DNA of 13,652 bases, taken from NCBI GenBank assembly GCA_040220235.1, contig JAVJTO010000067.1. One strand, 5' to 3'. The notes beneath the pieces were generated by a model. It searched no databases. It saw only the letters and a list, made by a program, of their open reading frames with translations, and was not told the DNA's origin. This document shows positions 6,163 through 13,429 of this stretch, in pieces; positions within the stretch are counted from its first letter, which is position 1, and every line of letters starts with the position of its first letter. The DNA comes from Coleofasciculus sp. B1-GNL1-01 (GTDB lineage Bacteria > Cyanobacteriota > Cyanobacteriia > Cyanobacteriales > Coleofasciculaceae). A program made the translations under genes and the position numbers.

Positions 6163-6750
6163 TTAACCAAGTGCATCCTCTGGATACGCCGATAAACTCA
6201 AGATAAATCCCGGTAATAGGGTTTCACCTGATAATTCTGTCGGCAAATTTCGCAGTTCTACTGGCTGTCCCTGGCGATAAATTTCCACTTGCTGCTGTTG
6301 GGGATTAATTAACCATGCCAATTGCACGCCAGCATCCATGTATTCTTGCATCTTGTCACGTAAGGGTTGTAAATCGTCTGTAGCTGACCTTAATTCGATA
6401 ACAAAATCCGGTGCAATTGGGGGAAATTTGCGTCGTTGTTCAGGGGGGAGCGCTTCCCAGCGTTCTTGGCGAATCCAAGCCGCATCTGGGGAACGTTTAG
6501 CGCCATTAGGCAACTTAAAGATTGTGGAGGAACTGAAGGTATAACCCAGGTTAGTTTGTCTGTTCCAGATTCCCAAATCGATAATTAATTCAGCTTCTCG
6601 ATTTCCACTTTCTCCGCCAACGGGTGGCATGATAATTAATTCCCCCTGCGCCGTCGTTTCAAAGTTAAACTCGCGATTATTTTGACATAATTGATAGAAC
6701 TGTTCGTCGGTTAAGGGAATTGTATCTAATTTTAAGGTTACAGTATTCAT
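6163..6750 (-). CDS. Uma2 family (DUF820) PD-(D/E)xK-like endonuclease, copy 1
   Basis: Motifs LTDEQFYQLC, GELIIMPP, FKLPNGAKRSPDAAW, PIAPDFVIELRS, KMQEY, WLINP and LSGETLLPGF. Confidence 0.93.
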   Translation of the reverse strand: MNTVTLKLDTIPLTDEQFYQLCQNNREFNFETTAQGELIIMPPVGGESGNREAELIIDLGIWNRQTNLGYTFSSSTIFKLPNGAKRSPDAAWIRQERWEALPPEQRRKFPPIAPDFVIELRSATDDLQPLRDKMQEYMDAGVQLAWLINPQQQQVEIYRQGQPVELRNLPTELSGETLLPGFILSLSAYPEDALG

Positions 6751-6791
6751 GTTTTTACCCTAGCTTCAATTAGCTTTAAACTTACATAGCT

Positions 6792-7364
6792 TTATAAATA
6801 GGCAGATAAAGTTAAGCTAAATTCCGGTAATAGGGTTTCACCTGATAATTCTGTCGGCAGATTTCGTAGTTCTACTGGCTGTCCCTGACGATAAATTTCC
6901 ACTTGCTGCTGTTGGGGATTAATTAACCATGCCAATTGCACGCCAGCATCCATGTATTCTTGCATTTTGTCACGCAACGGTTGCAAATCGTCTGTGGCTG
7001 ACCTTAATTCGATGACAAAATCCGGTGCAATTGGGGGAAATTTGCGTCGTTGTTCAGGGGGGAGCGCTTCCCAGCGTTCTCGGCGAATCCAAGCCGCATC
7101 TGGGGAACGTTTCGCACCATTGGGTAACTTAAATATTGTGGAGGAACTGAAGGTATAACCCAAAGCAGTTTGCCGATTCCAGATGACTAAATCTGCAATC
7201 AGTTCAGATTCTCGATTTCCACTTTCTCCGCCAACGGGTGGCATGATAATTAATTCTCCCTGCGCCGTCGTTTCAAAGTTAAACTCGCGATTATTTTGAC
7301 ATAATTGATAGAACTGTTCGTCGGTTAAGGGAATGGTGTCTAAATTTAAGGTTACAGTATTCAT
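6792..7364 (-). CDS. Uma2 family (DUF820) endonuclease, copy 2 (tandem paralogue)
   Basis: Same motifs as copy 1; near-identical at a 614-bp offset. Confidence 0.93.
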   Translation of the reverse strand: MNTVTLNLDTIPLTDEQFYQLCQNNREFNFETTAQGELIIMPPVGGESGNRESELIADLVIWNRQTALGYTFSSSTIFKLPNGAKRSPDAAWIRRERWEALPPEQRRKFPPIAPDFVIELRSATDDLQPLRDKMQEYMDAGVQLAWLINPQQQQVEIYRQGQPVELRNLPTELSGETLLPEFSLTLSAYL

Positions 7365-9774: not shown

Positions 9775-9866
9775 CAATGGCACTGAAATAAGCATTTTAT
9801 GATCGCCAAAACCCTTGAGATAGCGTAGGGTGGGCATTGCCCACCAGCCTTAAGTCAGCGCCATTC
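9775..9866. mobile_element. 92-bp MITE with 18-bp TIRs, a 10-bp target-site duplication and an internal GTAG REP hairpin
   Basis: TIRs caatggcactgaaataag (9775-9792) and cttaagtcagcgccattc (9849-9866). Flanks atcctcagtc (9765-9774) and atcttcagtc (9867-9876) match 9/10. REP gtagggtgggcattgcccacc at 9825-9845. Confidence 0.8.
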
Positions 9867-9916: not shown

Positions 9917-10300
9917 TTAAATAACACTGATTGAGTAGGCACGAATCTTTTGATCGACGGTGGCAATGGTTAAACGATGGTGCAAAGCCTGACAGATAAG
10001 CATTCTATCAAAGGGATCACGGTGAAATAAAGGCAGCTTGATAAGTTGAGCAACACTATCCTCATCGAGACTCAGGCTAGCAATTTGATGGCGAACCCGC
10101 TGTTGGGGTAAATAGATTTCGGGGGACTGCGGCAGAGGTAGCTTGTTTAGCTGATACTTGACAATAGACTCCCAAATTGAAACAACACTCAGATAGACCT
10201 CGTTATTGGGATCACGAATAGCATTTAAAACAGGTGTTGATAGTTTAGGATTGCCACTGATAAACCACAAAAAGATATGAGTGTCAAGCAAAAGTTTCAT
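9917..10300 (-). CDS. vapC: Type II toxin-antitoxin VapC family toxin (PIN domain ribonuclease)
   Basis: 127 aa with MKLLLDTHIFLW, SVVSIWE, HRDPFDRMLICQA and TVD; the acidic PIN residues are present. Confidence 0.93.
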   Translation of the reverse strand: MKLLLDTHIFLWFISGNPKLSTPVLNAIRDPNNEVYLSVVSIWESIVKYQLNKLPLPQSPEIYLPQQRVRHQIASLSLDEDSVAQLIKLPLFHRDPFDRMLICQALHHRLTIATVDQKIRAYSISVI

Positions 10301-11445
10301 TAGCTTTCAAAAGCACTCAAAATATCTTCGGGTAGAGAATCATCAAAATCATCGGGTACAGTGAACTCTCCCGCACACAAGCCAAAGGGTCGTAACGGTT
10401 TTGGGTTGGGTATCAGCAGTAGGTTATTCTGGTGTTTAATCTCCTGTAGAACTTGGTCACGCATCGCTTCAGCTTCAGGATAATTTTTGTCGATTAATAA
10501 AACTGTGTTGTAGCTAGCCAATGCATTCTCAAGCTGTCCTAGTTCGCGCAGTGCATTGCCACGATTAAACCAATACTGAGCATTATTGGGTTGGAGTGCC
10601 AGCGCCCGTTCAAAGCTGGAAAGTGCATCTTTATACCGACCCATGTCATAAAATATTACACCTTGATCATTCCACAATTTATAATTTTTGGGTTCTAACT
10701 CTATTGCTTTGTTAAAACTTTCAATTGCCGCTTCAATGTTGCCACATTCCCCATAAACTATCGCCAGATTAGCCAAAATTATAACTTCATTTTCTTGAAT
10801 ATTTAAAGCGTGTTCATAACTATCTATTGCCTCTAGATAGCGACCTAGCTGAGATAGAACAGCACCTCGATTCGTCCATGCCTGAAAATTATTTGGATTA
10901 ACGTCTACAGCCTGGTTATAGCTTATAACCGCGTCTTCAAGGCGACCCAAGTCATGTAAAACAATGCCTCGGTTATGCAAAATCCAATCTTTATTGCGTT
11001 CAGGTTTGCATTCCAAAGCCTGATCATAACTGACAATAGCATCATTTTTATAGTTTAATTCTCGGAGAACATTTCCTTTGTTATACCAAGCAATATAACT
11101 ATCTGGGTTAATCTCTATAGCTTGATCAAAGTTAGATAATGCCTGCTGATGTTCCCCCAGGGCTAAGTATGCCAAGCCGAGTTTATTCCAGGCAAGGTAT
11201 TCATCAGACTTATTTGTTAAAGCACGTTCGTAACACTGAATACTTTCCTGATAATGCCCCAAGTCGTAGAATCTGTCTCCCTCGCTATGCCATTTGGAAT
11301 GCTGATACACACCGTTGGTAGAGCGAGATAGCTCTAACGGTTTTATGGTATAGGCATCGTAAATTTGGGGTTCATCTCTCTGGTGAATAGCTACCATCGC
11401 CAGTTCGTCCCGATTATAAAGAATGTTGGTTTCCCATTTTCTCAT
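10300..11445 (-). CDS. Tetratricopeptide repeat protein (8 TPRs) with a C-terminal VapB/DUF2281-like antitoxin tail
   Basis: Eight ~34-aa repeats of the W-x-N-x-G...LG...A...Y/F..AL...P type, a capping helix, then PKPLRPFGLCAGEFTVPDDFDDSLPEDILSAFES. The stop overlaps the vapC start (TAATG). The start codon is uncertain; MVAIH is an alternative. Confidence 0.88.
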   Translation of the reverse strand: MRKWETNILYNRDELAMVAIHQRDEPQIYDAYTIKPLELSRSTNGVYQHSKWHSEGDRFYDLGHYQESIQCYERALTNKSDEYLAWNKLGLAYLALGEHQQALSNFDQAIEINPDSYIAWYNKGNVLRELNYKNDAIVSYDQALECKPERNKDWILHNRGIVLHDLGRLEDAVISYNQAVDVNPNNFQAWTNRGAVLSQLGRYLEAIDSYEHALNIQENEVIILANLAIVYGECGNIEAAIESFNKAIELEPKNYKLWNDQGVIFYDMGRYKDALSSFERALALQPNNAQYWFNRGNALRELGQLENALASYNTVLLIDKNYPEAEAMRDQVLQEIKHQNNLLLIPNPKPLRPFGLCAGEFTVPDDFDDSLPEDILSAFES

Positions 11446-11770
11446 TGTGACATAGGCGATGAGTTGCCAAGCATGATCGGGTCTTCCGTAGTTAGTGTGC
11501 TAAATTGTTAGTTGGATTTGCCGGAATATGGGACAGCAATAGCTTTAACCAATTTTACCCGGATTTCAAGAGAGTTTTGAGGCGATGAAAAGCGGCAGTC
11601 CTTGTGTGGTAAGCTTCCTGGTTCATTAAAGCTGATAGTTTAGCCCACTAAGTCCGGAAGACCCAGAATAGTTTGTTATTCTCCTTAACAGTAGTAGAAA
11701 ATATCAACAAGGGTTATCATCTCGCATTGATCAAATAAATATTCCCCCCACCTTCTAGAAGAAAAAATAA

Positions 11771-13429
11771 ATGCCAGGTCATGACATCATCGTTGTTGGA
11801 GCCTCCGCCGGCGGGGTAGAAGCGCTCAAGCAACTGGTTGCTGCTTTGCCGGAAAACCTACCCGCTGCGATTTTCATTGTCACTCATGTTTCACGCCACG
11901 TTAAAAGCTTTCTGCCGAATATTTTGAACCGAAGAAGTCCCTTACCAGTGGCTCATGCTACAGAGCATGAAGAGATTGTGCAAGGGCGCATCTATGTAGC
12001 CCCTCCGGACTACCACCTGCTAGTCAAACGCGGCTATGTCCGCCTAGTATACGGTCCGAAGGAGAACGGCTGTCGTCCGGCGGTTGATCCTTTGTTTCGC
12101 ACGGCAGCAAAGGCGTATGGATGCCGAGTCGTTGGTGTGGTGTTATCGGGTACGCTCGACGATGGTACTGTAGGGCTTGTGGATGTGAAACGTTTTGGCG
12201 GTGTGGCGATTGTTCAAGATCCCAATGATGCCCTGTTTTCGGGAATGCCCAAGAGCGCGATTAAACACGTAGATGTTGACCATATTCTGCCCTTGTCGTC
12301 AATAGCCTCCGCTTTAGTTCGTCTAGCCCATGAATCGGTAACGGAGGAAGGAGCAACAACCATGTCTAATCAGAACGAGACAGAGATAGAACCTGATGTG
12401 GTGGAATTCAATGGGGCGGCTATGCGAGAGCGTGATCTGGGAATACCTGCAAGCTTAGCTTGTCCCGACTGCGGCGGTATGCTGTACTATCAGAACGACA
12501 AAGGTTTGCTCAAATACCGTTGTCGCGTGGGTCATGCTTGGTCAGCAGGTAGTTTGGTAGCAGGGCAATCTGAGACTCAGGAGCAGGCGCTGTGGACGGC
12601 AATCCGTTCTTTAGAGGAGCGTGGAGAACTGATGAGTCAGATGGCAGCCAACGCCCGCAATAACAATCGTCTTATTTCAGCCCAACGTTTTGAAGCAAAA
12701 GCGCAGGAAGCCCGACAGCGTGCTGACATCATTCGGCAAGCACTTTTTCAAGGGCAATTTCCGACTACACCAGCATCTGCCGCAGCTACCCAAGACTCCA
12801 ACCCAAACCAGGAGAACGAGCTAAAAACTTTCAAACTAGTGGTACTGGTAGCAAAAACTGGTGGACTGAGGGTTCTAAGCCATATCCTGGCTGCCTTACC
12901 AGAGGATTTCCCGGCAGCGCTTGTCGTGGTGCAACACCTAGACTCTCAATCCTCTGCCAATTGGATCAGTGACGTAGTGAACCATTCCACAACCTTACCC
13001 CTCAAACTGCCTGAAGCCGGAGAGTCAATACAACCGGGGATAGCTTACATAGCCCCCCCAACTGAACACCTGCTAGTCAACCCGAACGGTACGTTTTCGT
13101 TCTCTCAGGCAGCATTCGTGGACTTTGATCGCCCCTCTGCCGATCTACTGTTGCAGTCAGTCGCCGCTACGTTTAAAGAACGTGCGATCGCGGTAATTCT
13201 ATCTGGCACGGGCAACGATGGTGCTTTGGGGGTGCAGGCTATTCATAAGATGGGCGGTAAAGTCATCGCCCAAGATGAAGACACTTGTGATTTTTTCGAG
13301 ATGCCGTCTGCGGCGATTCAAACGGGGGCGGTAGATTGGGTTGTGCCGATGAGTGCGATCGCTTCTACTCTAATCAGCTTAGTGATGATAGGGAAAGGGG
13401 AACAGGGAACAGCTAATAGAGAGTTATAG
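11771..13429 (+). CDS. cheB: Chemotaxis CheB-like protein-glutamate methylesterase with two CheB domains and a central Cys/His motif region; no receiver domain
   Basis: Domain 1: GASAGG, VTH, YVAPPDYHL, RPAVDPLF, VLSGTLDDG, VQDP, GMP. Middle: CPDCGG...YRCRVGH. Domain 2: VAKTGG, VQH, YIAPP, RPSADLL, ILSGTGNDGA, AQDE, EMP. Confidence 0.9.
   Translation: MPGHDIIVVGASAGGVEALKQLVAALPENLPAAIFIVTHVSRHVKSFLPNILNRRSPLPVAHATEHEEIVQGRIYVAPPDYHLLVKRGYVRLVYGPKENGCRPAVDPLFRTAAKAYGCRVVGVVLSGTLDDGTVGLVDVKRFGGVAIVQDPNDALFSGMPKSAIKHVDVDHILPLSSIASALVRLAHESVTEEGATTMSNQNETEIEPDVVEFNGAAMRERDLGIPASLACPDCGGMLYYQNDKGLLKYRCRVGHAWSAGSLVAGQSETQEQALWTAIRSLEERGELMSQMAANARNNNRLISAQRFEAKAQEARQRADIIRQALFQGQFPTTPASAAATQDSNPNQENELKTFKLVVLVAKTGGLRVLSHILAALPEDFPAALVVVQHLDSQSSANWISDVVNHSTTLPLKLPEAGESIQPGIAYIAPPTEHLLVNPNGTFSFSQAAFVDFDRPSADLLLQSVAATFKERAIAVILSGTGNDGALGVQAIHKMGGKVIAQDEDTCDFFEMPSAAIQTGAVDWVVPMSAIASTLISLVMIGKGEQGTANREL
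13391..13425 (+). repeat. Degenerate GGGAACA heptamer tract forming the last codons of cheB
   Basis: gggaaag gggaaca gggaaca gctaata gagagtt; reverse complement of the TGTTCCC STRR unit. Confidence 0.65.

Follow-up and report, generated by a model that had tools for sequence, protein, structure and literature searches.

A TPR protein ending in a VapB-type tail precedes vapC in Coleofasciculus and belongs to a TPR family with four C-terminal tails

How chromosomal toxin-antitoxin systems are activated is a long-standing open question, and the locus described here raises it directly: what holds a VapC toxin in check, and what would release it, when the gene in front of vapC encodes an array of TPRs? 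The window, by which we mean the whole stretch of DNA analysed, is an entire contig of 13,652 nt from the 8.66-Mb genome of Coleofasciculus sp. B1-GNL1-01. A first-pass annotation had proposed that a TPR-antitoxin fusion in this window is coupled to a VapC toxin and acts as a sensor, possibly of phages. We found that the pair is a real, conserved variant of the type II toxin-antitoxin architecture, to which a sensor hypothesis can be attached, and that its TPR family has exchanged C-terminal tails.

The two genes and the C-terminal tail

Both ORFs lie on the minus strand and have base 10300 in common: the 381-aa ORF (P0001, 10300..11445) stops, and the 127-aa vapC ORF (P0002, 9917..10300) starts, within the same TAATG. 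This 1-nt overlap suggests that the two genes are translated together. The eight TPRs that had been read from the translation were recovered by Pfam, whose TPR_1 family matched eight stretches of the longer protein (E 1.8e-63), and by an AlphaFold2 model (mean pLDDT 83) with eight helical hairpins (residues 49-322; 10480..11301), a capping helix (residues 323-344; 10414..10479), and a low-confidence tail (residues 345-381). At the N-terminus, residues 1-20 are missing from most orthologs and poorly predicted, and they are followed by a family-specific extension (residues 21-48; 11302..11385) with a mean conservation of 0.61 over residues 21-50 and a pLDDT of 70-81 over residues 21-40. P0001 matched TPR families only, with no Phd, RHH, AbrB, or DUF2281 domain among the best 25 of 43 Pfam matches, and the model is an all-helical solenoid, in line with the earlier view that a TPR solenoid has replaced the DNA-binding N-terminus; a fold search with the TPR model returned generic TPR solenoids only. 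With its 381 aa and its TPRs, the protein is not a small DNA-binding antitoxin of the kind that defines type II VapBC.

The last 34 residues (348-381; 10303..10404) are predicted to be disordered and form a VapB-type tail (tail A), the putative toxin-neutralising segment. The last 54 aa matched the NCBIfam VapB family NF050009 (E 1.6e-4) with 22 bits against a cut-off of 60, which is set for whole proteins and is not reached because the match is confined to the tail. Ordinary antitoxins whose N-termini are Phd-like or DUF2281 end in the same motif, so the tail does correspond to the conserved C-terminal part of a VapB family. A tail-motif scan of the genome collection gave at least 120 stretches; among the 120 matches listed, four were in frames of at least 140 aa (one of them a match by chance and another owed to a start placed too far upstream), and the others were mostly ORFs of ~70-100 aa that differ in their N-termini (Phd-like, DUF2281, and others). 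Directly downstream of 80 pattern-matched tail loci with flanks, we found a full VapC of the same family in 42, a partial or broken one in 15, and none in 22, the contig of the remaining locus being too short to read the next gene. Ordinary operons of the tail-A family have an antitoxin-vapC spacing of -4 nt. DNA similarity between the window and ordinary vapBC operons spans vapC and the tail and ends at ~10395-10404 (median end 10395, 92 matches), and therefore tail and toxin were acquired as one unit. The annotated lack of a small stand-alone antitoxin was also confirmed, as a tail profile run against 52,618 six-frame ORFs of the genome found P0001 only (next best E 4.4); neither tail A nor its VapC family has a second copy in this genome. 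A PDB sequence search with the tail gave no match. In Shigella, VapC is inhibited by an extended C-terminal tail of VapB (PMC3384007), and a two-part antitoxin layout is general (PMC4803016). Judged from homology, tail A would very probably wrap around VapC as a disordered segment and block its RNase activity.

The toxin itself looks intact, as had been noted. Pfam PIN matched the 127-aa protein above its cut-off (E 2.6e-12), and residues D6, E44, D98, and D116 are all present and conserved in 41 homologs, the first three aligning with D7, E42, and D98 of the Shigella toxin. The model (pLDDT 96.5) has a VapC fold, with Foldseek TM scores of 0.70-0.77 to Shigella and Rickettsia VapC at ~20% identity; because identity to the solved VapCs is this low, their RNA targets are not transferable. 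A PDB sequence search with VapC gave no match, and a profile search gave weak VapC matches only. Elsewhere in the same genome, a different PIN gene (L202 766-1760, from contig C172) stands behind an unusually long ORF of 185 aa that has no Pfam match and an antitoxin-like end.

Conservation and surroundings of the module

One single contig bridges the TPR-tail-vapC junction in each of four public sequencing runs; three of these are RNA libraries, whose contigs cover the module and do not prove transcription, strand, or start. A search for other TPR proteins with this tail upstream of vapC, which had been suggested with the annotation, located the operon again, there with 11 TPRs (483 aa), in two of the eight other genomes of the genus (G006 and G007), and the 8-repeat form on three near-identical metagenome contigs, which we counted once. 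Misassembly is thus excluded, since contigs from all four runs bridge the junction and two other genomes of the genus share the arrangement, and with it falls the concern that the fusion might be unique to this assembly. Across nine genomes of the genus, the module is intact in three and deleted in one. It is destroyed in G002, one metagenome contig, and one run by deletions from 11274 to 10251 and from 10183 onward, which take out TPR, tail, and toxin jointly.

Pairwise comparison of the four tail-A copies (Nei-Gojobori counts, with pairs that are not independent) gave a dN/dS of 0.25-0.54 for the TPR part, 0.07-0.18 for the tail (five pairs with changes, one pair identical), and 0.15-0.35 for VapC, so that within the genus the TPR part is less constrained than tail or toxin. 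Because relatives share the fusion and its TPR part, tail, and VapC are all under purifying selection, it is not recent; it is neither an assembly error nor a new event, and the earlier expectation that it is kept under selection holds for all three parts.

Two repeated elements flank the operon. A MITE-like element of ~190 bp (11476-11669), with 33-nt inverted arms that are 82% complementary, lies 30 nt upstream of the TPR start; it has several copies in the genome, is missing at the same site in G006 and G007, and may affect the operon promoter. Just downstream of vapC, an element of ~90 bp (9776-9866) has dozens of genome copies and a very high summed depth in all four runs. A promoter and terminator scan of the window gave three promoter-like sites vs 5.7 expected. 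The genome contains 7,011 HIP1 sites, which fits a cyanobacterium, as does a mostly cyanobacterial set of relatives, and a HIP1-mediated junction was considered and rejected for this locus, where no GCGATCGC site lies between 9176 and 13183.

The neighbouring genes encode an SLH-glycosyl hydrolase, two Uma2 proteins, and a CheB protein, and do not form a defence island. The Uma2 genes (putative restriction endonucleases; 6163-7364) are tandem and near-identical. The CheB gene (11771-13429) encodes two CheB methylesterase domains flanking a CxxC zinc-ribbon-like segment, and a shorter one-domain form occupies the same place in G006, near a contig end. PADLOC-DB 2.0 had no system match for the pair, with zero families for VapC and partial, generic TPR matches only for the TPR protein, and viral contigs, in which nine pattern matches were seen, held no relative. 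The anti-phage role proposed at the outset is thus unsupported so far.

One TPR family with four C-terminal tails

Orthologs of the TPR protein were defined by its family-specific N-terminal region and sought in overlapping samples, i.e., 31 relatives, 52 genomes of the family, 401 of the class, and 401 of the phylum, as well as metagenome contigs and a protein collection; in the two large genome searches 13-14 candidates per genome were scored, so some members may have been missed. This gave 11 full-length members, the genome-backed ones spanning four families. The C-terminal domain of each of the 11 is encoded elsewhere as a small gene of its own, the first of a two-gene module, and no full-length ortholog ends tail-less at the capping helix. 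The swapping of tails on one TPR family is the main new result of this study, and the three further partner domains on orthologous TPR proteins strengthen the case beyond what the window alone could show.

Tail A and its VapC are found in four of the 11 members, with VapC intact in each. Five others (G013, G064, G688, L149, and L150) carry tail B, an unrelated VapB tail of 65 aa followed by a different PIN protein, whose gene is intact in four and reduced to a remnant of ~20 codons in G064. Elsewhere, tail B is found in stand-alone ORFs of ~87 aa before their own VapC: 23 of its 24 matches in 301 genomes were in short frames, and VapC-B or a remnant stood directly behind in nine of the 11 short-frame loci examined. 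The tail-B fusion (n = 5) has persisted over a dS of 0.4-1.7, with dN/dS of 0.15-0.25 for the TPR part and 0.18-0.34 for the tail. In G013 (L141 4877-10920), the ortholog is surrounded by several small gene pairs that resemble toxin-antitoxin pairs by their translations; other tail-B copies sit amid housekeeping genes.

Tails C and D are single cases, and we treat both as putative inhibitors. Tail C (G422) is an uncharacterised domain of ~95 aa, behind which a C39 peptidase gene is interrupted after 34 codons; it stands alone before a full C39 peptidase gene in seven of nine loci, and one structural neighbour, a PepSY protein (TM 0.56), is a lead only. In these nine loci (L192-L200), an uncharacterised protein of 100-155 aa overlaps the downstream peptidase gene in seven, and the two are possibly a toxin-antitoxin-like pair of inhibitor and peptidase. 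Tail D (P0207) is DUF5678-like (E 7.8e-4, below the cut-off; atlas lead 0.86), on a protein with 67% identity to the G688 copy over the N-terminal region. In the window's own genome, DUF5678 is fused to a retropepsin-like aspartyl protease (L204 625-1248, from contig C88).

The matching partner gene is directly behind and intact in eight of the 10 copies with known context (P0207 left out) and broken in the other two (G064 and G422), where the TPR frame is still open. All four tail types begin directly after the capping helix, and four tail states imply at least three swaps. A tree of the TPR part placed the tail-A copies apart from the tail-B and tail-C copies, without starred support, and gives no order of swaps. 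The first and last TPRs are the best conserved (0.80-0.84), and losses are of whole internal repeats, in frame. The best 150 matches of an N-terminal alignment profile among 1.84 billion representatives were generic multi-TPR proteins and one 71-aa fragment, and a protein search with residues 15-135 gave eight matches, none an ortholog (at most 42% identity).

Tail A is also found on proteins unrelated to this family. It had 114 matches in 108 of 401 genomes, seven of them in frames of at least 260 aa, the window's own included; the other six belong to a 270-aa helical family (four genomes), a DUF7226 protein, and a 5'-nucleotidase, with vapC directly behind all four helical proteins (intact in three), an intact VapC behind the DUF7226 protein, and no vapC behind the 5'-nucleotidase. 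The helical family (L165, L166, L168, and L169; P0004, P0005, P0019, and others; 260-273 aa) matches no Pfam family, and in some records NCBI annotates only its last 71 aa, as a Phd antitoxin. A length-restricted protein search gave 35 long tail-bearing proteins, including ApeA, Swt1, RiboL-PSP HEPN, DUF4062, HerA, and membrane proteins, with downstream genes visible for the genome-backed cases only. In a PADLOC scan of 20 proteins, matches to defence families, known or candidate, were obtained for five cargo proteins (ApeA/PDC-S58, PDC-S60, PDC-S08, PDC-M34B, and HerA). Nine defence-type proteins with the VapB tail at the C-terminus (P0007, P0008, P0012, P0013, P0018, P0003, P0031, P0034, and P0035; ApeA, RiboL-PSP and Swt1 HEPN, HerA, and DUF4062) possibly represent a guard arrangement. 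As tail A sits on many unrelated proteins, one of them without vapC behind it, tail capture is a frequent background event.

Proposed gating, its rivals, and known systems

We hypothesize that the pair is a variant of type II toxin-antitoxin systems whose TPR part replaces the DNA-binding domain and gates release of the effector, a reading to which we give an even chance. The tail, made together with VapC, would hold the toxin inactive, and because a TPR solenoid stands in place of the DNA-binding domain, control would not be expected to work through classical autorepression. The tail would then be displaced or destroyed when a protein ligand occupies the TPR groove or when a protease or chaperone recognises the TPR part, and freed VapC would cut RNA and stop translation. 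For the gating step itself, i.e., that the TPR part binds a protein or recruits proteolysis, we see the balance as equal on both sides; a phage protein is one candidate cue, and an unlikely one. More broadly, the TPR family would be a reusable input module on which the inhibitor-effector cassette was swapped at least three times. That it is a dedicated trigger, sensing one protein cue and freeing the downstream effector via an exchangeable C-terminal inhibitor, is a tentative extension that we lean against slightly; the effectors would then be two unrelated VapC RNases, a C39 cysteine peptidase, and, probably, an aspartyl protease.

The main rival, prompted by the fusions of tail A to unrelated proteins, is addiction by capture, in which a TPR gene with a separate job gained the tail and vapC by a deletion and the TPR part does not control the toxin; only in-frame fusions would survive the toxin, which would make the TPR gene hard to lose, and later swaps would have happened likewise. 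Such a history fits the tail fusions to unrelated cargo, which are common and partly decayed, the arrival of tail and vapC as one DNA unit from an ordinary operon, and the open TPR frames where the partner is broken, and the several cargo proteins that match candidate defence families fit either neighbourhood capture or stabilisation. Selection to keep neutralising the toxin could on its own keep fusions in frame. Capture accounts for the in-frame junctions but not for the missing tail-less forms, and four unrelated modules on one rare family are hard to obtain from a background of ~6 in 100 tail matches; moreover, one congener and one metagenome contig have lost the TPR part along with the toxin, which speaks against an essential job of its own for the TPR part. 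We favour gating over capture, which we consider rather unlikely, because every member seen of this rare, patchily distributed TPR family carries a partner domain, and four unrelated domains have been gained at one and the same position, although 11 related copies are a small sample for this argument.

More doubtful still is that the TPR part is a mere promoter, translation start, or stable carrier, or that the antitoxin is a 54-aa peptide begun at M328, the pair being constitutively silenced or an ordinary toxin-antitoxin system. All four tail-A copies retain the possible internal ATG (10462-10464), which lies 54 codons before the end, and the number of TPRs differs among copies (11 in most relatives, eight in P0001, where three internal repeats are gone in frame, and fewer in two others). 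Conservation is also not clearly higher at the positions that we take to be groove-facing than at those that we take to be on the outer face (0.55 vs 0.46, p = 0.08; seven of 10 aligned rows, one per lineage). Against this, M328 belongs to the capping helix of the TPR array, its position is held by W or some other residue in most orthologs, and the preceding 15 nt contain no Shine-Dalgarno-like sequence. No internal start able to yield a tail-only antitoxin is common to the five tail-B copies, and conservation between tail-A and tail-B proteins, which are 54-56% identical, is repeat-specific. We are reasonably confident that the antitoxin at work is the full-length TPR fusion rather than a short internal product. 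A recent, functionless accident or an assembly artefact would suit the patchiness of the module in the genus and its flanking repeated elements, but is extremely improbable given its presence in independent genomes and runs, the purifying selection on all three parts, and orthologs in four families; the artefact half is refuted by the other genomes of the genus and the bridging contigs.

Known systems offer partial parallels. In toxin-antitoxin-chaperone (TAC) systems, an extra antitoxin domain couples toxin release to a protein cue, and the TPR arrays of Avs proteins recognise phage proteins. The present pair resembles these in its extra antitoxin domain and TPR array, but no SecB-like chaperone gene or STAND NTPase was found among the neighbouring ORFs scanned. 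With type II VapBC (Shigella flexneri, PDB 3TND; cyanobacterial Phd- or DUF2281-VapB plus PIN pairs) it shares the PIN fold, the aligned acidic residues, and an antitoxin gene that comes first and overlaps, as well as the extended C-terminal tail (PMC3384007); it differs in an antitoxin of 381 aa rather than ~80 and in the TPR solenoid at the place of the DNA-binding domain. DUF2281-PIN and Phd-PIN pairs of Synechocystis are tabulated in PMC4963859. In CapRel SJ46, the antitoxin domain doubles as phage sensor (bioRxiv 10.1101/2023.12.08.570793), and the logic proposed here is similar: once a ligand is bound by the antitoxin part, a toxin that acts on translation would no longer be inhibited. 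However, CapRel is one polypeptide with a tRNA-pyrophosphorylating toxin, whereas here two ORFs in different frames encode a putative TPR sensor and a PIN RNase, and the pair is not a CapRel member. The TPR-GreA/B-C-PIN proteins (Kaur et al. 2021, PMC8195603) likewise combine TPR and PIN in a predicted counter-invader unit, found in cyanobacteria, with swappable effectors, but each is one large polypeptide that includes a GreA/B-C domain and varies in its N-terminal effector; in the present pair, VapC supplies the PIN domain as a protein of its own, and it is the C-terminal inhibitor that varies, along with the next gene. GreA/B was not among the best 25 of 43 Pfam matches, and the model has no room for it. 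A search of titles and the starts of abstracts, covering mainly openly available papers, found no account of a TPR-VapB fusion or of such tail swapping.

The antitoxin thus appears to be split into a constant input part, the TPR array, and an exchangeable inhibitor, which makes the trigger accessible to TPR pull-down, with the natural variants as controls. If the gating reading is true, it would give a simple evolutionary route from housekeeping toxin-antitoxin pairs to sensor-gated immunity or stress switches, and the gene pairs with C39 peptidase and with DUF5678 and protease, both uncharacterised, would be inhibitor-effector modules of a toxin-antitoxin-like kind. On the more tentative reading of a dedicated trigger, grafts of the 34-aa VapB tail onto ApeA, other HEPN, DUF4062, HerA, and membrane proteins would be a general cyanobacterial way to make a toxin respond to what happens to any given protein, guarding that protein against phage inhibitors. 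If the capture model alone holds, the same fusions would represent a recurring way in which toxin-antitoxin modules stabilise neighbouring genes.
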